Assembly: GCA_038061715.1 (NCBI GenBank)
Contig: JBBTYP010000003.1
Coordinates: 12,034 to 76,033, forward strand
Direction: 5' to 3'
DNA length: 64,000 nt
From: Patescibacteria group bacterium
GTDB lineage: Bacteria > Patescibacteriota > Minisyncoccia > Phycocordibacterales > UBA918
The notes under the pieces: generated by a model
Told to the model about the DNA's origin: nothing
Seen by the model: the letters and a program-made list of their open reading frames with translations, nothing else
Databases searched by the model: none
Program-made: the position numbers and the translations under genes
Part shown: in pieces, positions 13,734-52,640 of the stretch
Numbering within the stretch: the first letter of the stretch is position 1
Layout of the letters: every line of letters begins with the position of its first letter

Positions 13734-13849
13734 CAGGTAAGTATAGCTGTTTTATTTTGTGGGGGTAAGTAACTAAGCGGAGATGGAGTTGGTCACGAAT
13801 CACTAAGTATATTTGTTCGGCTCCGCCTCCAAATCTACTAAGTGTTCTC

Positions 13850-13951
13850 GAATCTTACAGATTCTGTACACCTTGTCGCTATTTTATTTCTCCTCACTCA
13901 TAAAATTGCTGGCAAGGTCTTGCGAAATGGGTCCCACCCCATTTCTCACCC
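13850..13951. repeat. Copy 1 of a ~90-100 bp intergenic repeat family: palindrome GAATCTTACAGATTC, core ACAAAATAGCTGGCAAGG..CTTGCGAAA, second hairpin, terminal TCACCC
   Basis: Shares order and conserved blocks with 23498-23585 and 23905-23994; hairpin 2 here aaatggg-tcccac-cccattt. Confidence 0.7.
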
Positions 13952-18544: not shown

Positions 18545-18991
18545 TTATTTATTAAGTAATACTTCAAAAAAATCCTCGCCCGATTGAGTAAGATCGTAGG
18601 TATTTTTACCTTTTTGTCTGACTAATCCGTCCTTGATGGCACGACTAAGGTACACCGGAGCATATGCTCCGTGGAACTTACCTTCCTTCCAACCCTGCTG
18701 AATATCACTAACCTGCACGTCAGTTTTAATAAGGATTTTTTCGTTATAGCCTACGATTGCCGCTACACGCTCCTGACCGTTTTCTAATGAGTTATTTCTG
18801 GCTAATTCAGGCAGTGTGATTTTTTTCTGCGTCTGCCGTATTGTAGGGGTTGGAGACAAAGATTGTTCGCTCCCAGACGTGAGTGCGTCAATCTTTACAT
18901 GCAGTGCTTGTAAAGAGGCTTTTATTTCCTTAAGTGTTTGATTGATATTCTCCATACTGTTTTGTAATACTAGGTTTATAGGGTCCGACAT
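18545..18991 (-). CDS. Hypothetical protein (N-terminal coiled coil), first gene of cassette
   Basis: 148 aa; preceded by 458-bp non-coding region. Confidence 0.3.
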   Translation of the reverse strand: MSDPINLVLQNSMENINQTLKEIKASLQALHVKIDALTSGSEQSLSPTPTIRQTQKKITLPELARNNSLENGQERVAAIVGYNEKILIKTDVQVSDIQQGWKEGKFHGAYAPVYLSRAIKDGLVRQKGKNTYDLTQSGEDFFEVLLNK

Positions 18992-23401: not shown

Positions 23402-23497
23402 GAAAACAGGCGCACAAAGTATGCATTTTTACGCTCACTTGCCGCATAATACATATGTGATTTTGTATCCTTACGTCACAAACTATCTCATTCGCTC

Positions 23498-23585
23498 GAA
23501 TCTTACAGATTCAGTTCAGGTTGTCGCCATTTTTACAAAATAGCTGGCAACCTCTTGCGAAATGATATTAAGTCATTTCTCACCC
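23498..23585. repeat. Copy 2 of intergenic repeat family (GAATCTTACAGATTC ... ACAAAATAGCTGGCAACCTCTTGCGAAA ... hairpin gaaatga-tattaag-tcatttc ... TCACCC)
   Basis: Conserved blocks identical to copy 1; both hairpins retained through compensatory changes. Confidence 0.7.
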
Positions 23586-23904: not shown

Positions 23905-23994
23905 GGGGGCAAGTACACCTTGTCGCTATGTTTGTTCGTAAACTCACAAAATAGCTGGCAAGGCCTTGCGAAAGTCTCCCAGACTTTCTCACCC
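23905..23994. repeat. Copy 3 of intergenic repeat family (lacks 5' palindrome; GTACACCTTGTCGCTATG ... ACAAAATAGCTGGCAAGGCCTTGCGAAA ... hairpin gaaagtc-tccca-gactttc ... TCACCC)
   Basis: Abuts stop codon of minus-strand gene 23994-24464. Confidence 0.65.
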
Positions 23995-24880: not shown

Positions 24881-27529
24881 CTACTTTTGGTAAATTGTCA
24901 TTGTGCCAGCACTAGGAGCAGTGGTGGTGAGAATTTCGCCCGTCTTAATGGTTACATCAGATAGGTTTCCAGCTGTGACGGAAGCGGTTGAGTAAGAAAT
25001 TCCGTAGGTTCCAGCGGGAAGGTTCCCGACTGTGAAACTTCCTGATCCAGTTGTCTTGACCACAACCACATACTTACCGTCTTTGTTAATAAAGGCTATC
25101 GCTTGTTTACCACTATTAGTAGTAGTGGCTCCGATGCGAACGGCTCCTTTGCGCACGTACTTAAATACTTGGGCAAGTTGTGGGGTTGCGTTAGCTAGCG
25201 TAATAATCGCATTTTGTGGATTCGCAATATTTGCTCTTAGGTAGTAACCCCCGTTGTCTTGGAGCGTAGTTTTTTGGGCTAGACCCCATTGTTGCCAAGA
25301 AGAAACGTTACCGATTGTGAGATCCTCCCATAGCTGATCAATACCAGCTCCGACTTTTTCTAACATCGCTGTTTTTAAGTTACTTGCCTTAGCAGTATTA
25401 GCAATACTCTGAATAGTCGAAACCTGTTGTGAGCCGTAACGGTGATACGCCAGTACGTCGAGCGATGAGATAATCCCTGCCACCTTTATCATGTCGTTAA
25501 AATACGGCAAGGTGTTCGCTTCGTTGGTGACGGACGGAGCGATGTACTCTGGATTAAATCCATTCGCACTCAATTTGCTTTTTACTGCCATCATTCCGTC
25601 ACCGAGTTGTTTACCTCTCCAACTCAAACTGTTTTCTGGTTCAAGATTGACTTCAAACGCATCGGGGGTAATTCCATATTTGTCGCGCATGTGGATGAAG
25701 AAGGCGAGGATTAATTCTGCAAACTCGTTTGGGTTGTTGGCGTGACTCAAAGAACCTTGTGAGCCCGTACCAAAATCAACATAGTTAATGTTTACATAAG
25801 GTTTCTCACCCTGCTTAGCCAATTCAGTCTTCATTGGTAACAGCAGATGTTCTACTTGGTAATCAAAGTATGAGAACTGGATCCCTGCCGCCGAAAGTGA
25901 ATTTGGATCGTTGTTATCATTAATTTTTTCGTAGTAACGGCCTTGAGTCTCTGTGTATGTCATTTGACCGTTAACAAAGCGGGGCCAGTAATCAACTGGG
26001 TTCTCCATTCCGCTGGTTATCTCTAATCGAACTCCGTTGAGGCCAGCCTTATTTACGAGCGCTGCTGCTACTGCTGTGTCATTCGCTATTCGAGAACCAT
26101 CGTAACGGTTATTTGCTTTGTCGATATCCCAACCTCGGTTCATTACCATCCAGGTGTCTATGGTTTGGAATTTACTACTTGGATTTATGTTAATAGTGGC
26201 AGAAGTCGGAGTTGGTGTTGGGGTAGGTGTAGGGGTAGGTGTTGGTGTTGGTGTTGGAGTCGGTACTGGTGCAGGCGGAGTTGTGTTCCCTCCCGAGACC
26301 CGGGTGAGAAACTCTTCCGCACTCCAACCATCAAGTCCGGCAGCGTAGTCGATTTTCCACCACCAAATATTGTTGGCGTACGATGGGCCTCCAACTACTG
26401 TTCCTGTCGAGCCCTTTGGTTGATATCCGAGCCATTGTCCATAAGCAAGAGTACGAACCGAAAGCTGATTACTAGTTACGGTAACCTTGTCTTGAAGAGT
26501 AAACTTGGTACTCAAAGGAACTCTATCTGATGTTTGTGGGCTTTCTAACACTAAGGAAAGGAAGTTCTCGGCGCTCCAACCATCTGCTCCCGAATCGTAA
26601 TCGACTTTTCGCCACCATAGGTTGTTGGTGTAAGTTGGACCACCAACAATAGTTCCTCGCATATGCCGATTTTGAGATCCGATTTGATTACCGTTGGCCG
26701 CGTCACGCACCAAGAGCGGTGCGTCTACCGTGACCGCACGGTCGTTAAGTTGAAATTTACTGCTCCCGACTGGTGTAGTTGATGGTGGGGTATCAATAAC
26801 AGGGGGTAGTGTTGTCGGTGTTGGTTTTGGAGTTGGGGTTGGAGTTGGGGTTGGGGATGGGGTCTCTACTGGTACTGGTAATGGTGTCGGTTCTGGTGTC
26901 GGTTTCGGGGTTGGGGTCTCTGTTGGGGTTGGCGTAGCGGTAGGGCTAGGAGCTGGAGTTGTTTCTCCGATCTTTTCAAAGCGTACAGCATCAACCGACA
27001 CATTGGACATAGTGCCAGTTAAGGCCGTAAAGCTAACGCTGGCTTCCTTAGTAGCCGAAAAAGTGTAGTCGCCGTGGAGTATCCACTGCCCACCTCCACT
27101 GCGCTCTGAGAAGTTTTTTTCTGCCACACCGTTGGCGTGAGTCACTGAAACCGGCACTTTATCAGCATATTTTTCGTTGCTCACGTAACGTACCGATACT
27201 CGGTAAAGACCGTCGCTTGGAAGGGTGGTGAAGAAAGTAAAGTTCCGCGTTGGGTTACTTCCAACCCACTCGGTATAAAAGTCGGAACCATAGTAACCCG
27301 AGGAAGGGGTATCATTACTCTCCCATTTCCCACCGTCTCTTCTAGTGTGAGCGGTATCGTTGTTATCAATAACAATGGGTGAGGATTGAGAATTAGAAAC
27401 GGCAGCCGCCTGGGTATTTGTGTCATCGGTAACAGTCAGCGGCGCTGTGTCAGTCTTAAAGAAGACATAGGCTCCGACCGCAATCAGAACGAGAACAAAT
27501 AATAATAGGCTGATGGTTTTTTTACTCAT
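24881..27529 (-). CDS. Large secreted multi-domain protein: N-terminal beta-rich domain, PT-rich linkers, two SH3-like ~45-aa repeats, C-terminal GH-A clan glycoside-hydrolase-like domain (NEP motif)
   Basis: 882 aa; signal peptide; repeats GTIVGGPTYTNNLWWRKVDYDSGADGWSAENFL and GTVVGGPSYANNIWWWKIDYAAGLDGWSAEEFL; PTPTPT linkers; FEVNLEPENS. Confidence 0.5.
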   Translation of the reverse strand: MSKKTISLLLFVLVLIAVGAYVFFKTDTAPLTVTDDTNTQAAAVSNSQSSPIVIDNNDTAHTRRDGGKWESNDTPSSGYYGSDFYTEWVGSNPTRNFTFFTTLPSDGLYRVSVRYVSNEKYADKVPVSVTHANGVAEKNFSERSGGGQWILHGDYTFSATKEASVSFTALTGTMSNVSVDAVRFEKIGETTPAPSPTATPTPTETPTPKPTPEPTPLPVPVETPSPTPTPTPTPKPTPTTLPPVIDTPPSTTPVGSSKFQLNDRAVTVDAPLLVRDAANGNQIGSQNRHMRGTIVGGPTYTNNLWWRKVDYDSGADGWSAENFLSLVLESPQTSDRVPLSTKFTLQDKVTVTSNQLSVRTLAYGQWLGYQPKGSTGTVVGGPSYANNIWWWKIDYAAGLDGWSAEEFLTRVSGGNTTPPAPVPTPTPTPTPTPTPTPTPTPTSATININPSSKFQTIDTWMVMNRGWDIDKANNRYDGSRIANDTAVAAALVNKAGLNGVRLEITSGMENPVDYWPRFVNGQMTYTETQGRYYEKINDNNDPNSLSAAGIQFSYFDYQVEHLLLPMKTELAKQGEKPYVNINYVDFGTGSQGSLSHANNPNEFAELILAFFIHMRDKYGITPDAFEVNLEPENSLSWRGKQLGDGMMAVKSKLSANGFNPEYIAPSVTNEANTLPYFNDMIKVAGIISSLDVLAYHRYGSQQVSTIQSIANTAKASNLKTAMLEKVGAGIDQLWEDLTIGNVSSWQQWGLAQKTTLQDNGGYYLRANIANPQNAIITLANATPQLAQVFKYVRKGAVRIGATTTNSGKQAIAFINKDGKYVVVVKTTGSGSFTVGNLPAGTYGISYSTASVTAGNLSDVTIKTGEILTTTAPSAGTMTIYQK
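26821..26960. repeat. Tandem imperfect hexanucleotide repeats (ggtgtt/ggggtt units) encoding PT linker; similar tract at 26207-26268
   Basis: Direct reading of sequence; encodes PTPTPTP on minus strand. Confidence 0.8.
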
Positions 27530-30077: not shown

Positions 30078-30767
30078 ATGAAGAAGCAGTTCCTCATCAT
30101 TGCTGGTGTTTTTTTCGCTGGCGTGGGAGCTATCCCAACCTACCAGCACCTGACCACCCCATTGGTGGTGCCAGTGCCGGTTTTCACCCCGAATGAAAAA
30201 CCAATCTTGGTCTCGGCCGAGGAAATCGCGGCGGCGGTGCGGGCGGATGCCTTCTTGGTGTCATCCCGCAGCAAAGCCACTGCGGTGGCGGTGGTGAAGT
30301 CGGGTGTCGACATCAGTTCCGACACTCCGACTGACGGCTGGGGGGCTTGGTTGCGACAATGGTGGAATTACCACACTACGCGCGACCGATTGACGGCTGA
30401 AGTGAGTGGTGAGGTGCTGGCGGGTTTCGACCTCAAGCAAATCACTGCCGCCAATGTCGTCAAAAATACCGACGACGAGGTGGTCTTCAATCTGGGTACG
30501 CCAGAATTCATGGGCGTGCTCAACGACGAGATGGCCACCAAGACCATCAAGCGGGAGACCGGTTGGTTTCGTCTCAAGGATGAGACCCTGCTGCTGGCCG
30601 CCCAGGCTTTGGGTGAACCAGCACTGCAGTCAAGCGCCTGCCACGACGGTGCTCTTCGCACCGCCGGTGAGTCGGGGACGGAAGTCGTGCGACGCATCAA
30701 CAATTATTTGCGTTTGCGAGGCTCTCGCCGAAGCGTTCAAGTGATCTTTACGCCACGCTCATGCTAA
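30078..30767 (+). CDS. Hypothetical exported protein co-located with the GC-rich hydrolase (same atypical composition)
   Basis: 229 aa; N-terminal TM/signal; 12-nt gap to upstream gene. Confidence 0.35.
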   Translation: MKKQFLIIAGVFFAGVGAIPTYQHLTTPLVVPVPVFTPNEKPILVSAEEIAAAVRADAFLVSSRSKATAVAVVKSGVDISSDTPTDGWGAWLRQWWNYHTTRDRLTAEVSGEVLAGFDLKQITAANVVKNTDDEVVFNLGTPEFMGVLNDEMATKTIKRETGWFRLKDETLLLAAQALGEPALQSSACHDGALRTAGESGTEVVRRINNYLRLRGSRRSVQVIFTPRSC

Positions 30768-30786: not shown

Positions 30787-30840
30787 AAGGGCTCCGCCTC
30801 GACTTTATGTCGTGCGGAGCCCTTTCTTTTATGTTTTCTA
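30787..30840. terminator. Intrinsic terminator after GC-rich two-gene unit
   Basis: aagggctccgc ... gcggagccctt followed by tcttttatgtttt. Confidence 0.65.
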
Positions 30841-30850
30841 TAGGACCTTC

Positions 30851-30872
30851 TCACTATCATATATGATAGTGA
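30851..30872. promoter_or_regulatory. 22-bp perfect palindrome TCACTATCATATATGATAGTGA (copy A); putative operator or recombination site
   Basis: 20-bp core repeated exactly at 38265-38284. Confidence 0.5.
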
Positions 30873-30882
30873 CCGATTATTT

Positions 30883-31377
30883 TTATTTCAGATAACTGTC
30901 GAAATAGATTGCATGGCAAGTATACCCTCCCGCATTTTTTTGCAAGTAATCCTGGTGGTAATCTTCAGCTGGCCAAAAGCGAGTTAATGGTTCTAGGGTA
31001 GTCACGACTGGACCTTGCCACCGCTCTGATTCGTTTACAATCTCTATCATCTCTTCCGCTGTTTTTTTCTCTTCATCGTTGGCATAGAAAATGGCCGACC
31101 GATATGAAGTTCCTTTGTCGTTTCCTTGTTGATTGAAAGTAGTTGGATTATGAATCTGAAAAAAGAAATCCAGAAGATTTTTGTATGAAGTTACTGTCGG
31201 GTCATAGGTAATCTCCACTGCCTCGGCGTGCCCAGGATGAAATTCGTAAGTTGGGTTTTCATTTTTCCCTCCGGCGTAGCCAGCTTCCGTGTCGATGACC
31301 CCGGGTTGGGTGCGAAGGAGATCTTCGAGTCCCCAGAAGCAGCCGCCAGCCAGTACAGCTTTTTTGAGTTCAGTCAT
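30883..31377 (-). CDS. msrA: Peptide methionine sulfoxide reductase A
   Basis: [15 protein letters not shown] active-site motif. Confidence 0.9.
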
Positions 31378-31380
31378 AAC

Positions 31381-31785
31381 TTATTTATTATTCATTTCTA
31401 GAGAAATACCGTTAATGCAGTAGCGGTCGTGTCGACCAAAATCGCGTTCGCCTTCACCCTTCCGCTCTGGTCCATCAGGGAACACGTGTCCGAGATGAGC
31501 TTTGCAATTGGCACAACGTACTTCGGTACGACGCATACCGTGACTGCTGTCATGAACCAAAATCACCGCCTTTTTGTCTACCGGGTCGGTAAATGACGGC
31601 CAGCCCGAGCCGGAGTCAAACTTTGTATCAGAATCAAATAGCACCGCCTGACAGATCGCACAATGAAACATCCCTTCATCGTCAATGTGGAGTAAGTCAC
31701 TGGAGTGCGGAGCCTCTGTACCACCCTCCCTAGCCACGCGATATAACTCTGGATTGTCTTTCTTCAATTGTTCATCTGTCTTCAT
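31381..31785 (-). CDS. msrB: Peptide methionine sulfoxide reductase B
   Basis: CxxC...CxxC zinc site and RCANCKAHLGHVFPDGP catalytic motif. Confidence 0.9.
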   Translation of the reverse strand: MKTDEQLKKDNPELYRVAREGGTEAPHSSDLLHIDDEGMFHCAICQAVLFDSDTKFDSGSGWPSFTDPVDKKAVILVHDSSHGMRRTEVRCANCKAHLGHVFPDGPERKGEGERDFGRHDRYCINGISLEMNNK

Positions 31786-34844: not shown

Positions 34845-34866
34845 AGAATTAACCGAGCAAAAATAT

Positions 34867-34940
34867 CCGCCCTTAGCTCAGTCGGTAGCTTGGGGAGCAT
34901 CCCATGCTTCCCAACCCTTGATTAAGGAGATGGGTCGATA
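34867..34940 (+). pseudogene. Truncated/rearranged copy of tRNA-Lys 5' half (22 nt identical to tRNA-Lys 5' end, 26-nt hairpin insertion, retained anticodon-loop segment, no T-arm)
   Basis: ccgcccttagctcagtcggtag + cttggggagcatcccatgcttcccaa + cccttgattaaggagatgg, compared with the intact gene 27 bp downstream. Confidence 0.6.
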
Positions 34941-34960
34941 TAAATTAAGGAAGAATATTT

Positions 34961-35033
34961 CCGCCCTTAGCTCAGTCGGTAGAGCGGCTCCCTTTTAAGG
35001 AGATGGTCCCAGGTTCGAGCCCTGGAGGGCGGA
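34961..35033 (+). tRNA. tRNA-Lys (TTT)
   Basis: Acceptor CCGCCCT/AGGGCGG (C1-G72), D-arm GCTC-AGTCGGTA-GAGC, anticodon loop CTTTTAA, T-arm CCAGG-TTCGAGC-CCTGG. Confidence 0.8.
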
Positions 35034-35050
35034 CAAGTGAAAAGCCCCAG

Positions 35051-35108: not shown

Positions 35109-37655
35109 CTACGGATTACTTGGTACTGGAACCAGTCTTGGGTTCGCTAACCAAGAGAAGCTAGAATACATTCTGATCTGTTGGCCGTTTCCTAGATCAC
35201 CGCCCGAACAATTGAGCAAATTATCGATGCAATTTTTACTCCATATATCCATCACGGTATGATCCCAGGCGCCAAACCAATCGGAGTGTAAGGTAGATCC
35301 TGGCGTCATCATGGTTCCGTTGGACATTTTGTCAGAAGACAGATACCAGCTTGGCAGATTGGCATCACTGGTATACCAGGCACCCAGGGTGAAGGTTGGA
35401 ATTACGTAAGGGTGGGTTGATGGACACTGGGCATAACCCTGACCAATGTAGCTTGAGTAGGCGACGTGAGAACGGTGGTTAGCACTATCGAGGTTTTTAC
35501 CGTCCCAACATTCTGGTGCGCTCAGTACCGCACCGATCTGGCTTCCAACGGGGCAGTTAAGTCTAGCTTTGTCGAGATCCGCATAGTGTCCTGACACCGC
35601 ACCGTTACCAATACAATTGAAGTAGCCAGCTCCTGTTGGTTTGGTGCCGCTGACCATGTCGTATCCGAAGACAAAACGTAGTCCACGAGGCAGGTCTACA
35701 CAACCCATCGCTCCAATCTTGGTACAAAGGGGATCAGTCTTAGGTCGTCGTTTGTAGTAAATACTGATGTAATCAGGTTTTACTACATTACCCTTACCAT
35801 CAAGCATGGCCGGCATCCAGTAGGCTGACCGGTTGAGTGGACTCATACAGGTACTATTACCAGTTCTCCGCAAGCTGTCATAAGTTGAGTTTGCATTGGC
35901 CAGAGTATTACCAAAGAATTGATGTAGGTGTGACTTACCGGGTTGTCCAGGGTAGACAATTGGATCATCGTAAATGAGTTGTCCAGCATTACAGATAAAA
36001 CGGAAGGCTCCAACTACGTCTGGTTTTGCGCTGGCTGGGATAGCTCCCGTTCCCCAAGAGGGGACCAGTTCAGAGCTCACGGTAAAGTTACTAGCAATTG
36101 CTGCCAGCTCAACCCCAGGAGGGATTCCACTAGGAGTTGGCGTCGGAGTAGGGGTTGGGGTTGGGGTGGGTTCTGGTGTCGGGGCTGGGATTGGGGTTGG
36201 GGTAGGAGTTGGAATTGGAGTACCCGCCAACAAGGCGTCAATGACTGGCTTGTAGACACGTGAGAGTTTTACCTGACCTCCTTCACCAACTCCTTGGGTA
36301 CTGTCAGTCGGATGAACTCCATCTTGGTAGAGGGTCTTATCTGCTGCCGCCACATCTGGTCCCATCGGGGTAGTACCGCCAAAATCAATAACGGCATCAA
36401 TCTTTTTTCCAACTTGGGCTTTCAGCAAAAGATTGACCTCGGCTCTCCTTTTATTAAAATTGGTATTGTTTAGAGTATTGTTTGTCCCTGGGACAGCTTG
36501 TGGCAATACTGTTCCCACGGCCACCTTGGCCCCTCCAGTCTTAATCGGTTCGATGTATGTAAGGAGTGCGTCAACGTAGGCTTGTGCGCTGGAATAGTTA
36601 AGTAATCCGTTGGCACCGACCAAAACCGAGAATACCTTGGGTTTCGCATTAAGAACTAGTTGCCGTCTGGCAGTCATAGCATTTATATCCGAACCGCCGA
36701 CAGCCAGTCCTTTGAAGGTGATGTCAGTTCGGGAACTAGAGTAAATCCCCGTGTAATTACCTCCCCAAAAAACCGATATACTGTCACCTTCCGCTACCAC
36801 TACTGGCTTACCAGAAGTAGTCGGGGCTGGTTCTGGAGCTGGAGCTGGAGTCGGGGTAGGAGTTGGAGTTGGATCTGGGTCCGGATTAGGTAGTGGGGTC
36901 GGTGTAGGGGCTGGTTTTGAGGAGCCTCCTCCTCCGCCGCCTGTACTAGTGCTGTCATTTGTTACCGTCACCTTGGTTGACCTAACTACAGTAGTGCCTT
37001 TAGCCAGACAACTTAGAGTATAAGTGAAAGTGCCCACTCTTCGCGCCTTGATTGTTTTGCTGCCGCTTTTAGGTTGGGTTCTGGACCAACTTCCAGAAGC
37101 CTTGCAAGAACTTACATTGAAGGCATTCCAACGTAGGACGAAGTTTTTACCTTTCTGAACGGTAGCTGGTGAAGCATATATTACAATTAAGGGCTCAGCT
37201 GTAATCCCGGCCGTCAAGGCTCTCATGGAGGCACTGTACGGTACGTTATAGGCTTGATCTGGAGATTTCGCCAAGTATTGGGAGTGTTCTTGGGTTAAGA
37301 AAAAAGCTGTTTGCTCATCAATAGCTCCTGACACCCTAATATTGTTATCGGTTTGGAACTTACGGACAGCGGCTTCGGTAAGTGGGCCGAAGTACCCCGT
37401 CGGAGAAACTCTTAGATAGTCCAAGTTGTGGAGAAACAACTGCATTCGAGCCACCTCAGTCGTTTCAAAACCAAAGGAAATCGGAAGTGCTTGTATGCCT
37501 TCAGATGTATCAAGTGCAACCGGTTCGGTGTGAACCACGCCGTTGTGGGCAAACGCAACCGAACTAGTAAGGAAGGACAAAAGAACAAAAGTTACAATCC
37601 TATTACTTAGAGTCTTCATGTAAATAAGCTTTATTTTAATAGTAATTAACAGCAT
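35109..37655 (-). CDS. Large secreted multi-domain protein: peptidoglycan-binding domain, SGNH/GDSL-type hydrolase domain, PT linkers, Cys/Trp-rich C-terminal domain of unknown function
   Basis: 848 aa; signal peptide; PG_binding_1-like [27 protein letters not shown]; [15 protein letters not shown] (GDS block I of SGNH hydrolases); PTPTPT linkers. Confidence 0.5.
36133..36225. repeat. Tandem imperfect hexanucleotide repeats encoding PT linker (second tract at 36828-36950)
   Basis: ggggttggggttggggtgggttctggtgtcggggctggga... direct reading. Confidence 0.8.
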
Positions 37656-37674: not shown

Positions 37675-38367
37675 CTAAATCCCCAATATCCACTCCTCCA
37701 GCGCCCCGTCCAAATCCCGCTTCCCTTGGTGGGCTAGGTGGTAGAGTTCAAGCAGTGACCGTGACAAGGCCTCGACTTCCCCATCTTTAAAATTACGGAG
37801 CGACTGAGTAGCCTTTTTGTAGGGGTAGTCTTTCATACCAGCCTCCTTTGCACTTCTGCTTAACTTCGCTAGTCGAAGCGATTTGAGCTGCCACCAGAGC
37901 AGGCCGATGGTTTCTTCGTCGCGGACTCCGGCCGCACGAGCTTCCTGGAGCAAGACCCATAGTTGTTTTTTGTCCTTCTTCGCCAGAGCTTCGGTGATAG
38001 CAAAGCGATTGAAATCAGTGGCCTTCGTGGCGGTAAATTCTTCAATCTCAGTGGCCTGCTTGGAATACTTCTTTTTTTTGTCGGCGAGAAGCGGACCTTC
38101 AAGGACGATGAAGATATTATGTGAAGCAGCCAGCTCGGCCAGGGTGCCAAAAATCTCTGATTCAAAATCCTCATCACCAGATGGTGTGTCGAGCAAAAAA
38201 CACTCCTTACCGCCAAACAGCGAACTGGCGCCCACCGCGCTTGCCACCAAGCCTAGTTTATATTCACTATCATATATGATAGTGGGAGATACTTCGAATT
38301 TATCTATCTCGGTTTGAGCTCTGTCCCTAATTGCCCTTCTGTCTGTTCCGTAAAAAACTGCGAGCAT
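37675..38367 (-). CDS. holA: Putative DNA polymerase III delta subunit (HolA-like, short)
   Basis: N-terminus MLAVFYGTDRRAIRDRA... resembles HolA LYLLYGEE... start; located 1 nt after polA stop; only 230 aa. Confidence 0.4.
   Translation of the reverse strand: MLAVFYGTDRRAIRDRAQTEIDKFEVSPTIIYDSEYKLGLVASAVGASSLFGGKECFLLDTPSGDEDFESEIFGTLAELAASHNIFIVLEGPLLADKKKKYSKQATEIEEFTATKATDFNRFAITEALAKKDKKQLWVLLQEARAAGVRDEETIGLLWWQLKSLRLAKLSRSAKEAGMKDYPYKKATQSLRNFKDGEVEALSRSLLELYHLAHQGKRDLDGALEEWILGI
38264..38284. promoter_or_regulatory. Second copy of palindrome TCACTATCATATATGATAGTG, inside holA N-terminal coding region
   Basis: Exact 21-nt match to 30851-30871. Confidence 0.5.
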
Positions 38368-38368
38368 A

Positions 38369-40756
38369 CTATATTCTTACTTTCAACTTCTCCATGTCGC
38401 GCCAATTTTGACCGACTTTTACTTCGGCTACAATTGGCACTTCGAAAGTCTCTTTACCCTCTAATACTCCTTCCATAATTGAGAGTAAGATTGGTACTTG
38501 TTTATCTACTTCTCCCTTCTTAATTTCAAACACCAGTTCGTCGTGAATCTGCAAGAGCAAGTGTACTCTCTCTTCGAGTTTATTTTTCTTTAAATGCTCA
38601 GCAATGCGCACCATCGCAATGCGCACAATGTCAGCTGCCGTACCTTGAATCGGAGCATTGATAGCCATACGTTCGGCAGCAGCACGAATAAACGGCACGC
38701 TTGAAGCAATACCGGCAAAGTGCCTACGACGACCAAAAAGAGTTTCGGTGTACCCGAGCTTGCGCGCTTGAGTCTTCGTATCTTCTAGGTATTCCGCCAA
38801 GCGGGTGAAGGTTTGGAAATAAGCATTGAGGAAAGCTTGAGCGTCTTCACGAGTAGTATCTTCACCGAGATTGGTACGTAAGGCATTGACTCCCATGCCG
38901 TAAAGAATCCCGAAGTTAATCACCTTGGCCTTGCGGCGCATACTAGGCGTCACCTCCTCGCTCTCCACTCCAAAAACTCTCATCGCTACCCCGTGGTGAA
39001 CATCCTCCGCTTTACGGAAAATTTCAATCATGTTTTTGTCTTGCGACATTATCGCAGCAATCCGTAGCTCAATTTGAGAATAGTCGATAGCCACGAGCTC
39101 GTAGCCAGATGAGGCGGTAAAGGCCGCCCGAATGGCCATCCCCTCGGTACTCTTTACTGGAATGTTTTGAATGTTTGGGTCTTTACTTCCCATGCGACCA
39201 GTGACGGTTCCAGTTTGCAAAAAGGTGGTGTGGATCTTGCCGTCGTCTTTAACCAACGTCGGCAACGTATCAATATAGGTGGAGACGAGTTTTTGTAATT
39301 CACGATAACGAAGAATTTCTTCAATAATTGGATGTTCGCCTTTGAGCTTTTCGAGTTCCGACTCTTTAGTGGAGCGTTGCCCGCCAGCAGTCTTTTTGGC
39401 ATTTTTCACCTTAAGGCCCAGGGTATCAAACAAGATGTCGCCCAGCTGTTTGGGTGAGTTGATGTTAAATTCTACTCCTGCCTGTTTGTAGATGCGTTTT
39501 TCAAGTCCAGTCAATTCTTTGTGAAAATCTTTTGAAAGGGTTGCTAAGTATTTCACATCAAGAGTAATGCCTGTCTGTTGCATTGTTTCAATCACAGGAA
39601 TTAGTGGCTGTTCGATATCGGTAAAGATAGGCTCTAGACCGGTGTGGATTACTTTTTCGCGCAAAGCCTTTACCGTTTCGTCCCACCCGTTCACTTTAAG
39701 GAAAGACCGTCCGTAGTCGACAATATCGTCGTACGAAGCGTTGGTGCGTTCACTTTCAAGGAGCCAGAGTAAAATGGCTGCTTCCTTGAGCGCCTGTGGC
39801 GACACCTCTGATTCGTCGCCGCCACCTTCTTCAGCTTTAAGTTCAAACAGCTTTCGCACACGGTCAGTGACGGTACGAAAACCAAATTCTGAGAAAAGAT
39901 TAAGAATAGCGGTGGTATCAGCTCGCTCCCGCCACTTGGTACCTGTCACATCAAATGAATCGAGTGCGTCAGTGCGAATCGTAGCGAGCATTTTAGAAAA
40001 CTCAGCTTCTTCTTTTCCGTCTTTCAAAAGACCGATAATGCGCGGAGAGAGGCCAAGTTCTTTAAACTGCGTTTCATCTTTTTGTAGGGCCTTATACATC
40101 TTTTCAATCGTGCCAAATTTTGAAATTAGAGTGGTGCCAGTTTTTTCTCCAATGCCGACAATCCCGGGAATATTATCTGAGGTATCACCCCGCAAGCCTT
40201 TATAGTCTGGTACAGAGGTCGGCGAAAATCCAAATCGCTCTTTCACCATCGCTTCATCATACAAAATAGTATCCTTGATACCCTTTTTAAGCGTATAAAC
40301 CTGTACGCGTTTTTTATCGACACACTGAAGGGTATCCATATCGCCCGAAGCAATAATGACCCGCACGTGTGAGTGCTCTTTCATGTAGTGAGCGATACTT
40401 CCGAGCATGTCGTCAGCTTCAAAACCGGGCTTCTCAAAAATCGGAATACCAAACGCCGCAAAGATATCGCGCGAGCGTTCAATCTGGGCTACTAGTGCAT
40501 CGTCAGTCTTTTTACGTCCTGATTTGTATCCGTCAAAAGCAGTATGGCGATAGGTTGGCTCTGGTAAGTCAAAACACGCCACCATATAATCTGGACGAAA
40601 ATCTTCGATGATCTTTAGCAACATCGTTACCACTCCATAGAGAGCACCAGTCGGTTCGCCAGTCGGTGAAGAAAAATCTGGTAGGGCGTGAAAAGCGCGG
40701 TGCAAAATCGCATGAGCGTCGAGAATGACTAGAGTTTCTTCTGTTTGCTTGGTCAT
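38369..40756 (-). CDS. polA: DNA polymerase I (5'-3' exonuclease plus family-A polymerase; reduced 3'-5' exonuclease region)
   Basis: 795 aa; DYSQIELR (motif A), RRKAKVINFGILYGMG (motif B), LLQIHDELVFE (motif C); N-terminal FEN-like domain. Confidence 0.9.
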   Translation of the reverse strand: MTKQTEETLVILDAHAILHRAFHALPDFSSPTGEPTGALYGVVTMLLKIIEDFRPDYMVACFDLPEPTYRHTAFDGYKSGRKKTDDALVAQIERSRDIFAAFGIPIFEKPGFEADDMLGSIAHYMKEHSHVRVIIASGDMDTLQCVDKKRVQVYTLKKGIKDTILYDEAMVKERFGFSPTSVPDYKGLRGDTSDNIPGIVGIGEKTGTTLISKFGTIEKMYKALQKDETQFKELGLSPRIIGLLKDGKEEAEFSKMLATIRTDALDSFDVTGTKWRERADTTAILNLFSEFGFRTVTDRVRKLFELKAEEGGGDESEVSPQALKEAAILLWLLESERTNASYDDIVDYGRSFLKVNGWDETVKALREKVIHTGLEPIFTDIEQPLIPVIETMQQTGITLDVKYLATLSKDFHKELTGLEKRIYKQAGVEFNINSPKQLGDILFDTLGLKVKNAKKTAGGQRSTKESELEKLKGEHPIIEEILRYRELQKLVSTYIDTLPTLVKDDGKIHTTFLQTGTVTGRMGSKDPNIQNIPVKSTEGMAIRAAFTASSGYELVAIDYSQIELRIAAIMSQDKNMIEIFRKAEDVHHGVAMRVFGVESEEVTPSMRRKAKVINFGILYGMGVNALRTNLGEDTTREDAQAFLNAYFQTFTRLAEYLEDTKTQARKLGYTETLFGRRRHFAGIASSVPFIRAAAERMAINAPIQGTAADIVRIAMVRIAEHLKKNKLEERVHLLLQIHDELVFEIKKGEVDKQVPILLSIMEGVLEGKETFEVPIVAEVKVGQNWRDMEKLKVRI

Positions 40757-43105: not shown

Positions 43106-43171
43106 TTGGGTCAATATAACAAAAAAAATATTTGTGTTATTTTTGAAAAAGTTCCCGGTACTTTCCAGACT

Positions 43172-43296
43172 ATAACTCTCTAAGCAAGGCTTCCGCATTG
43201 AAAGTGAATGCCGCGCTAAGGTAACCTTTCGCACTCCCATTCCAGGATGGGCGCCAAAAATCCCTCGCAACGCATCCAAGTTGCTTAGAGAGTTAT
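43172..43296. repeat. 125-bp element closed by a 16-bp perfect inverted repeat (ATAACTCTCTAAGCAA ... TTGCTTAGAGAGTTAT); candidate structured ncRNA or MITE-like element
   Basis: Direct reading; internal sub-hairpin gcatt-gaaagtg-aatgc; lies in 390-bp intergenic gap between pilB and ruvB. Confidence 0.5.
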
Positions 43297-43437
43297 ATTC
43301 TTGAAGTAATTGTAAAAGCGTGGGGCACCAACCAAGTTGGCGCAAGAGGAACGTAACGGGTACATACTAGCATATCTAAACTATTTGTCAACCCCACTCT
43401 AGGCCTTATTTAATGGCTTTTTTGCTATAATTACCTC

Positions 43438-51236: not shown

Positions 51237-52640
51237 TTATTTCAACAACATTCTTACTTGGGTAATCTCTTCTTCAATCTCTCCTCCTCTTTTAATCTCC
51301 CCTTTAATTTTCTCACAAGAGTGGATAACAGTGGTGTGGTCTCGTCCACCCAGCTTCTTACCAATAGCGGGGTAAGAAATTTGGAAATCCTCTCGCAAAA
51401 TATACATAATTATTTGGCGTGGCTTCACCACCTCTTTACGACGTGTCTTTTCGTAGATACTAGTTGGTTCTATATCGTAGTAACGAGCAATTTTATCAAC
51501 CACATCAGTAATAGCCAATGTTTTGCGTGGCCTAGAGCTGTTTTTGATAATTAAACGCACTTCCTCAACAGTAAGGGTCTTACCCAAAAGTTGTGATTGG
51601 CACATGATGGTGTTGAGAGCCCCCTCCAATTCACGCACATTACCCTCAATACTTTGGGCGAGATAATCAACCACATCATCGTAAAGTACGATACTATTTT
51701 GAGCTGCCTTCGCTCTCAAAATAGCAGCCCGGGACTCCAGGTCTGGCGCGGGTAGGTCAACAATCATTCCTTGCCCAAAGCGAGACTGTAAACGTTCCTC
51801 TAAACCAGAGAGAAGGGCGGGATGAATATCGCTTGAGAAGACAATTTGTTTGTTGTTGTCATGGAGGGCATTGAAAAGGTGGAATAGTTCCTCCTGAGTC
51901 TTTTCTTTTGAAGCTAAAAATTGAACGTCGTCCATCACAAGAACGTCATACTGACGGTATTTATCTTTAAAACTATTAGCAGTGCCGTTTTGGAGTGAGT
52001 TAAAATAATCTACAGCAAAACGTTCACTAGTGACATAAAAAACTTTTTTACCAGTTTTTTTAATCTGATTGCCTACCGCCTGTATGAGGTGGGTTTTACC
52101 ATGGCCAGTTTTTCCATAGATAAAGAGAGGGTTGTAGGTAATGCCGGGCTTTTCACTAACCGTTCTCGCCGCCGCGTGTGCCAGTGCGTTGTAAGGACCA
52201 ACCACAAAGTTCTCAAAAGAATATTTAGGGTTAAGATTGTCGCTTTTGTTGACGTAGTAATCCTCAAGTGGAAGAGCGGCGTTGATGGTTTGGTTTTTGT
52301 TGGCCTCTTGCTTCTTTTCATTTCGTTGCACTACAACATACTCGATGCTGCGGATGTGTGGGGTGAGGTCACGCAAGGTCTTCAAGATCATGGTTTGAAA
52401 TTTATCCTGAAGCCAATCTTTTACAAATACACTGGGGACTCCAATGGTAGAAGTTCCGTCTTCGATTGAGACAATATGAGTGTCGCGAAACCAAGTTTTA
52501 AAGTTAGCAGCGGTTATAGATAATTCAATTTTGACGAGAGCGTCATCCCAGAGCTGTTTTACATCAATTTGTTTGGTTTGTAAGATGCGGTTTTGAGTAG
52601 TTTGGTGTGAAGCGATATTCATAAGATGTACGGAATGCAT
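51237..52640 (-). CDS. dnaA: Chromosomal replication initiator protein DnaA
   Basis: AAA+ Walker A GKTGHGKTHL, VLVMDDVQFL box, C-terminal DnaA-box-binding helix; start set at internal ATG (52640 or 52622) because the upstream ORF extension is non-conserved and contains a DnaA-box-like motif. Confidence 0.85.
   Translation of the reverse strand: MHSVHLMNIASHQTTQNRILQTKQIDVKQLWDDALVKIELSITAANFKTWFRDTHIVSIEDGTSTIGVPSVFVKDWLQDKFQTMILKTLRDLTPHIRSIEYVVVQRNEKKQEANKNQTINAALPLEDYYVNKSDNLNPKYSFENFVVGPYNALAHAAARTVSEKPGITYNPLFIYGKTGHGKTHLIQAVGNQIKKTGKKVFYVTSERFAVDYFNSLQNGTANSFKDKYRQYDVLVMDDVQFLASKEKTQEELFHLFNALHDNNKQIVFSSDIHPALLSGLEERLQSRFGQGMIVDLPAPDLESRAAILRAKAAQNSIVLYDDVVDYLAQSIEGNVRELEGALNTIMCQSQLLGKTLTVEEVRLIIKNSSRPRKTLAITDVVDKIARYYDIEPTSIYEKTRRKEVVKPRQIIMYILREDFQISYPAIGKKLGGRDHTTVIHSCEKIKGEIKRGGEIEEEITQVRMLLK

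Follow-up and report, generated by a model that had tools for sequence, protein, structure and literature searches.

A perfect palindrome recurring in Patescibacteria genomes as the probable operator of a Trp-repressor-family protein

In a stretch of 64,000 nucleotides from a Patescibacteria genome recovered from Hainich groundwater (hereafter the window), the same 20-bp perfect palindrome, CACTATCATATATGATAGTG, is found at positions 30852-30871 and 38265-38284, once between genes and once within a coding sequence. What is the function of this sequence, and which protein, if any, recognizes it? A first-pass annotation had reported the two copies, 7.4 kb apart, considered them too long to recur by chance, and proposed either the operator of a dimeric transcription factor or a site for recombination and inversion. 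An exact search confirmed the two copies, and a role of chance in their recurrence was not borne out, as 100 dinucleotide-preserving shuffles of the window yielded 0 matches. The mismatch-tolerant count that had also been proposed left the number in the window at two, with no third match in the 64 kb even when up to 3 mismatches were allowed. In the same genome, a third copy, TGTCACTATCATATATGATAGTGACA, is located between two converging genes about 7.3 kb beyond the end of the window (L200 671-696, corresponding to about 71.3 kb in window coordinates). All three copies are 13-21 kb from dnaA (51240-52640), and two of the three have a stop codon on one side and a separate G+C-rich terminator on the other. 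Among perfect palindromes of at least 16 bp, the window contains just one more, CGGAGCATATGCTCCG at 18656, which is unrelated.

Site 1 (30851-30872, no strand) is a 22-bp perfect palindrome, TCACTATCATATATGATAGTGA, built around the 20-mer core. It is situated in the 3' intergenic gap of convergent genes, 12 nt from the stop codon of msrA (30883-31377, minus strand, Pfam PMSR), which forms a pair with msrB (31381-31785, minus strand, Pfam SelR; the pair spans 30883-31785). A gene assigned to DUF4230 by Pfam (30078-30767, plus strand), which is syntenic in the related contigs L005 and L009, converges on the site from the other side. Between its stop codon and site 1, we recognized by inspection a G+C-rich hairpin with a T-run (GGGCTCCGC...GCGGAGCCC TTTCTTTT; 30789-30832, plus strand) that is conserved with L009 and that a simple terminator scan misses because of its loop of more than 8 nt. 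Judging from its sequence, this hairpin is probably a terminator common to both convergent units. As RNA, site 1 is itself predicted to form a 9-bp hairpin with 3 G-C pairs (-10.4 to -11.8 kcal/mol, z about -3), and the scan scored it as terminator-like on the plus strand only; on the msrA strand, no T-run follows the site. The first-pass annotation had placed site 1 just after a GC-rich insertion, 3' of msrA. The intergenic position 3' of msrA stands, whereas the recent insertion does not: the block in question, a hydrolase gene and the DUF4230 gene with GC contents of 0.53-0.55, is syntenic in the related contigs L005, L006, and L009 and is thus not a recent acquisition. A clean insertion of an element at site 1 was rejected as well, since the spacer, when aligned with L005 and L009, is variable in general and has neither element boundaries nor duplications.

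Site 2 (38265-38284, no strand) is part of the coding sequence of a holA-like gene (37675-38367, minus strand, 230 aa), in which codons about 29-34 read TIIYDS. Homologues of the gene are named DNA polymerase III delta subunit by JGI, and no Pfam match was obtained for the protein encoded in the window. Directly upstream is polA, coding for DNA polymerase I (38369-40756, minus strand; Pfam DNA_pol_A, 5_3_exonuc_N, and 5_3_exonuc). The site is located 84 nt past the holA-like start codon and, by our measurement, 85 nt from the polA stop codon, in agreement with the position in the N-terminal coding region that it had been given before. In three holA orthologues, the proteins of which are just 74-75% identical, a 24-nt block, TCCCACTATCATATATGATAGTGA, is identical; none of the 8 third-codon positions within it varies, compared to 38 of 48 outside (p = 3e-5). 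According to this codon pattern, the holA copy is under selection at the DNA level. In the closest holA homologue that lacks the site, the corresponding codons read PTIIDES and there is no indel, which implies that the site was made by substitutions and not by insertion.

In order to place these copies in a wider context, one genome per species was scanned for the 18-mer core, ACTATCATATATGATAGT. This gave 107 stretches, about 90 of which belong to Patescibacteria (with labels such as Kaiserbacteria, Paceibacteria, and Parcubacteria); 14 loci come from other phyla, which is roughly the number that chance among palindromes would give. Single genomes carry 3-8 exact copies. No copy of the 20-mer was present in viral contigs, and Rfam found only tRNAs in the window, with no match at site 1 or site 2. 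With the flanks of the regulator gene described below excluded and gene calls in the fetched loci based on our own longest-ORF heuristic, 30 solo copies are in convergent and 10 in divergent intergenic regions; those in tandem gene pairs are mostly at most 50 nt past the upstream stop codon. The neighbouring genes, among them pgk, rpoC, rpsA, atpA/atpD, thrS, murC, prmC, holA, and dnaG, belong to no single pathway, and none of the neighbours examined is a his or trp gene, unlike the genes associated with HisR and TrpR. Copies within coding sequences are repeatedly found in orthologues from different genomes (murC four times, prmC three times, a glycosyltransferase gene and a TrmB-like gene twice each). 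Symmetry is pronounced: 242 sites are perfect, 65 have one asymmetry, mostly in the outermost pair, and 11 have two, while the background mode is five. The flanks of intergenic copies extend the palindrome with sequence specific to each copy (median +6 nt per arm, 54% with at least 5, maximum +20), whereas the median extension of coding copies is +1 nt per arm (p = 4e-4). Upstream of ruvB, L013 carries a 58-bp palindrome, and the orthologous spot in the window is an ordinary terminator without the core. In the Flavobacteriaceae Kordia and Algibacter, ATCATACTATCATATATGATAGTATGAT is found upstream of an orthologous 295-aa gene (L069 7717-7843 and L041 6991-7008), where it probably serves an unrelated regulator as operator and shares the 18-mer by coincidence.

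In at least 16 of the 18-mer loci, the palindrome brackets an ORF of 135-156 aa, and such an ORF is present at every locus that has two or three copies in a span of about 500 bp. At the latter loci, one copy is 0-25 nt ahead of the ATG and another 10-50 nt past the stop codon; wherever the gene is seen, the bracketing copies are located 0-40 nt before its start codon and 10-100 nt past its stop codon. The encoded protein matches Pfam Trp_repressor (PF01371) with E = 1e-12, above the gathering threshold; four palindrome-bracketed proteins scored 27.8-48.1 bits against the cut-off of 27, and a precomputed PF01371 domain is present on all 120 homologues among the matches listed, out of 2142. The profile search also retrieved the solved TrpR-like structures 3FRW (8e-11), 3KOR, and 3G1C, with E. 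coli TrpR as a weaker match (E about 1e-4). An AlphaFold model (AF2, pLDDT 88.6) predicts an all-helical, TrpR-like fold with a helix-turn-helix (HTH), which superimposes on 3FRW and 3G1C with TM scores of 0.81-0.86 and an rmsd of 1.5-1.8 Å (0.79-0.86 with 3KOR included); E. coli TrpR ranked after these three with a TM score of 0.6. Scores against the NCBIfam model yecD_yerC (TIGR02531) were 24.8-27.9 bits, below its cut-off of 42.2. At its C-terminus, the protein is extended by about 40 residues that include a conserved ..KKYPLHFLLFP motif. The possibility that its HFLLF part is a beta-clamp-binding peptide was rejected, as AF2 predicts this region to be helical with moderate confidence and shows no disordered tail. 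The family comprises at least 2142 sequence clusters according to the profile search, and the source annotations name its members just "YerC" or "Trp family regulator". The gene neighbours vary by clade (rpoC/dnaG, obg/secA, tgt/rarA, uvrC/uvrA), with synteny kept within clades.

The association was examined from the side of the protein, using 80 metagenome loci fetched via the protein alone, 76 of which had room on both sides of the gene; an 18-bp palindrome with at most one asymmetry was counted as a site. A palindrome was present on both sides of the TrpR-like gene in 61 of the 76 loci, on one side in 11, and on neither side in 4. In 67 of the 76 it was at most 120 nt upstream of the gene, mostly 0-40 nt. 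The central 14-mer was identical in 55 of 64 upstream/downstream pairs. While the centre, (C/G)ATATAT(G/C), is invariant among these loci, the arms are lineage-specific (ACTATC.., TCTTATC.., ACTATG.., GACTTG.., TTTACC.., CATTTC..), and the same variant is usually found on both sides of one gene.

We found that the base at position -4, counted from the centre, varies together with the residue at the opening of the recognition helix (G-x-[N/D]-T). This residue is Asp in all 25 cases with a TG-ATA half-site and Asn in 25 of the 34 with a TC-ATA half-site, while CC and CG occur with small residues; the Fisher p value of this association is 8e-16, not corrected for phylogeny. The co-varying residue aligns by eye with Ala80 of E. 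coli TrpR, in which Ile79-Ala80-Thr81 is the DNA-contacting stretch (PMC9413887). Operators of the TrpR family, that is of TrpR and of HisR (YerC), are 20-bp palindromes, and autoregulation is frequent among these regulators: a HisR site, for which the consensus is cacTTTAnnnnnnTAAAgtg, is found ahead of about half of the hisR genes (PMC9413887). This consensus resembles CACTATC-ATATAT-GATAGTG. A literature search found no paper tying TrpR-like proteins or such palindromes to Patescibacteria.

The linkage to the flanks of the gene, the co-variation of residue and base, and the 20-bp palindromic operators of TrpR and HisR together indicate that the palindrome is the cognate site of the protein. 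We therefore regard it as likely that the palindrome is the operator of a small dimeric HTH protein of the Trp-repressor family, belonging to a Patescibacteria-specific branch related to YerC/HisR, with the gene located elsewhere in the genome. Of the two earlier proposals, it is the dimeric transcription-factor operator that gains from these data, since the palindrome and its lineage variants flank a Trp_repressor-family gene and one of its bases co-varies with a recognition-helix residue. In the source genome, the TrpR-like gene was found neither in the window nor within about 8 kb on either side, nor among the 120 listed of the 2142 profile matches. When the regulator of the closest genome was used as the query, three matches were obtained, none from this sampling site. 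Two regulator candidates, one of which (P0197) comes from the same well (Hainich H41), are associated with different variants of the palindrome.

The nearest characterized relative is HisR (YerC) of Firmicutes, which belongs to the same Pfam family (PF01371) and shares the fold of the palindrome-linked protein (structures 3G1C, 3FRW, and 3KOR). Its operator is likewise a 20-bp palindrome with CAC...GTG ends and a lineage-varying consensus, and is found before the regulator's own gene (PMC9413887). In contrast to HisR, the Patescibacteria protein stays below the yecD_yerC cut-off and carries the extra C-terminal residues, and its sites have an invariant ATATAT centre instead of nnnnnn, are perfectly symmetric, and are found not only on either side of the gene but also past stop codons and within genes. 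E. coli TrpR at the trp operator, GTACTAGTTAACTAGTAC, provides the general scheme of a dimeric HTH repressor on an 18-20-bp palindrome, as proposed here, but is only distantly similar, recognizes another half-site, and is connected to the tryptophan pathway. Apart from the unusual architecture and placement of the sites, the pair would thus represent a variant of the TrpR-family regulator and its operator.

By analogy with TrpR and HisR, a dimer would occupy each site, with one HTH per half-site, and binding may need a small-molecule co-repressor, as it does in these two proteins. The TrpR-like protein would repress its own gene. An exchange of Asn for Asp in the recognition helix would shift the preference at position -4 from C to G, i.e. 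to GATATATC. Both sites in the window are outside promoter regions, one in a coding sequence and one in a convergent 3' region; this placement weakens the claim of a classical promoter operator and leaves that of a binding site for the protein unaffected. PurR at purB and the lacO2 site are intragenic roadblock operators. The holA copy is like them in being a putative repressor site within the first 100 nt or so of a coding sequence that is kept at the DNA level, and differs in its perfect 20-bp symmetry, which dictates the peptide TIIYDS. From its position at +84 of the coding sequence, it would act as an intragenic operator or roadblock through which holA and the genes downstream could be controlled separately from polA. 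The copies just past stop codons, namely site 1 and the third copy, might form protein-reinforced boundaries between converging or tandem units, or alternatively serve as titration sites of low cost.

The placement of the copies also lends itself to a different reading, in which the TrpR-like protein binds its sites as architectural landmarks, i.e. as boundaries or insulators, for roadblock termination, or for cruciform protection, comparable to matS, NBS, SBS, or the BIMEs bound by IHF. The position of most solo copies just past stop codons, the lack of a common pathway among the neighbouring genes, the presence of only 3-8 copies per genome, the perfect and extended palindromes, and the two of three copies that lie between a stop codon and a separate terminator in the source genome would all be in line with such a role. 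It is nevertheless rather unlikely, given that all characterized TrpR-family members are metabolite-sensing repressors (PMC9413887), that a site placed 0-40 nt ahead of the start codon of the protein itself is typical of autoregulation, and that copies in other genomes show no clustering around dnaA. The latter also led us to discard parS/ParB or other origin-linked sites: no dnaA was present in the 8-kb neighbourhoods of the copies from other genomes, and the linked protein is TrpR-like. Alternatively, the element could act as an RNA hairpin, be it a terminator, a stabilizer of mRNA ends, or a translational operator, so that the symmetry of the DNA would be a by-product of stem pairing. The copy-specific arms do lengthen the stem, often with A-runs and T-runs as in bidirectional terminators; orthologous sites 3' of pgk (L074, L081, L091) keep the core while their outer stems differ; the predicted hairpins range from -9 to -52 kcal/mol; and in one locus (L155, about 250-300) a 46-bp palindrome before the TrpR-like gene includes the gene's own GGAGG and ATG, so that the translation start would be sequestered if the RNA folded into a hairpin. 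However, structure alone leaves unexplained why all copies of a genome have the same 18-20 nt and why these co-vary with an HTH residue. Moreover, a by-eye tally of internal asymmetries in sense orientation gave about 9 G-T (G-U wobble) against 5 A-C, which is no significant excess, site 2 is inside a coding sequence, and site 1 has no T-run on the msrA strand. We consider such an RNA role quite improbable.

A selfish or mobile palindromic element similar to REPs or MITEs, in which palindrome, gene, and palindrome move as a unit and recombination between the ends leaves solo copies, would account for the identical repeats that bracket the gene and for gene neighbours that differ by clade. In the interval next to obg, one locus (L103 3076-3562) has the TrpR-like gene and two palindromes between obg and the gene for a 112-aa membrane protein, while another (L023 5740-6125) has three palindromes and no TrpR-like ORF, which suggests that the gene was lost and the sites were left behind. 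The arrangement also recalls REP/BIME sequences and REP-RAYT systems, in which palindromes bracket a gene and are scattered at the 3' ends of others, and some BIMEs carry sites for the DNA-binding protein IHF; here, by contrast, only the hairpin apex is conserved. Against a mobile unit, the bracketed gene encodes only an HTH regulator without a catalytic domain and not an HUH or DDE transposase, the synteny of the gene is conserved within clades, target-site duplications are missing, the holA copy arose without an indel, the copy number is low, and viral contigs lack the sequence, all of which renders this explanation highly improbable. The inversion or recombination pair suggested earlier has next to no probability in our assessment, and the same is true for a target of a LAGLIDADG homing endonuclease. 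No recombinase was called from 27 to 48 kb, the holA junction is the same in four independent, collinear assemblies, and relatives in which one or both copies are missing have the same order and orientation from holA to msrA. As a perfect palindrome has no polarity, exchange between the two copies would result in deletion as well as inversion, and either would break holA and disturb the interval with ruvA, the Mur ligase gene, rpsT, and tRNA-Lys. A 22-bp palindrome of 9+4+9 is reminiscent of the targets of homodimeric LAGLIDADG enzymes, and LAGLIDADG_3 genes are found 2-3 kb from the holA copy in three loci (L005, L006, L008), but such genes occur in none of the other approximately 190 loci fetched by palindrome or TrpR-like protein, nor in the window. 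With 227-276 aa, those near holA are presumably of the monomeric type, which cuts asymmetric sites.

The operator reading thus remains the one we favour, with the reservation that the bias towards 3' ends, the palindromic flanks specific to each copy, and the perfect symmetry are unlike ordinary operators and would be compatible with an RNA or DNA hairpin as well. Seen from the sequences, these features may stem from a function in termination, from transcription boundaries reinforced by protein, from the formation of cruciforms, or from growth of the palindrome templated by a hairpin. It is conceivable, if doubtful, that they belong together in a dedicated Patescibacteria system, in which the TrpR-like protein acts on a few symmetric, cruciform-prone palindromes, the bound hairpins function as boundaries and roadblock terminators, and the palindromes grow outwards by hairpin-templated copying. 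The sites would then be placed at the apex of terminator hairpins and inside essential genes (holA, murC, prmC, dnaG) and would not be promoter operators. If true, this would be a new way to punctuate transcription units in very small genomes.

To our knowledge, no regulator of the Patescibacteria (candidate phyla radiation), with their tiny genomes, has been characterized experimentally. The present results provide a widespread regulator family (at least 2142 clusters) with a defined site, a rule that relates one residue to one base, and a short list of targets per genome. They also pose a puzzle, in that symmetric sites at gene ends and inside a replication gene may point to regulation by roadblocks or boundaries and not by promoter occlusion. 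For genome annotation, they account for the recurrent peptides "TIIYDS" and "LSYMIV" as well as for long perfect palindromes in Patescibacteria genomes.

Additional observations concern the surroundings of the sites. In relatives, the polA-holA-SpoU neighbourhood holds small, probably mobile genes (L009/L010 9626-9970, L005 3756-4523, L008 2557-3387), with a 23S_rRNA_IVP gene between polA and holA and the LAGLIDADG_3 genes downstream of holA, pointing to a hot spot of gene turnover. The intact tRNA-Lys(ttt) (34961-35034) is preceded, 94 nt upstream, by a second, partial copy of its 5' two-thirds (34860-34945). This copy is at the edge of the interval that separates holA from the SpoU methylase gene and that varies in gene content among relatives; it may be the scar of a rearrangement or integration. 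The genes for two large proteins of secreted type (24881-27529 and 35109-37655) share long repeats, GTTGGNGTNGG on the plus strand, which encode linkers rich in Pro, Thr, and Asn on the coding strand. Since dnaA adjoins rnpA and yidC, the window takes in the probable origin region; a cluster of TrbL, PrgI, TraC, and VirB4/TraG-like genes follows towards the window end. An element of about 80 nt is present three times next to tRNA-Leu and tRNA-Arg genes (13847-13929, 23495-23564, 23913-23975) and may be a shared promoter or leader. Finally, at 43163-43305, two inverted arms of 25 nt enclose a core of 93 nt that has no Rfam match at the gathering score or at E <= 1. The core is strongly conserved in the orthologous spacer of L013, between a gene for a 574-aa protein and ruvB, and the element may represent an unannotated small RNA.
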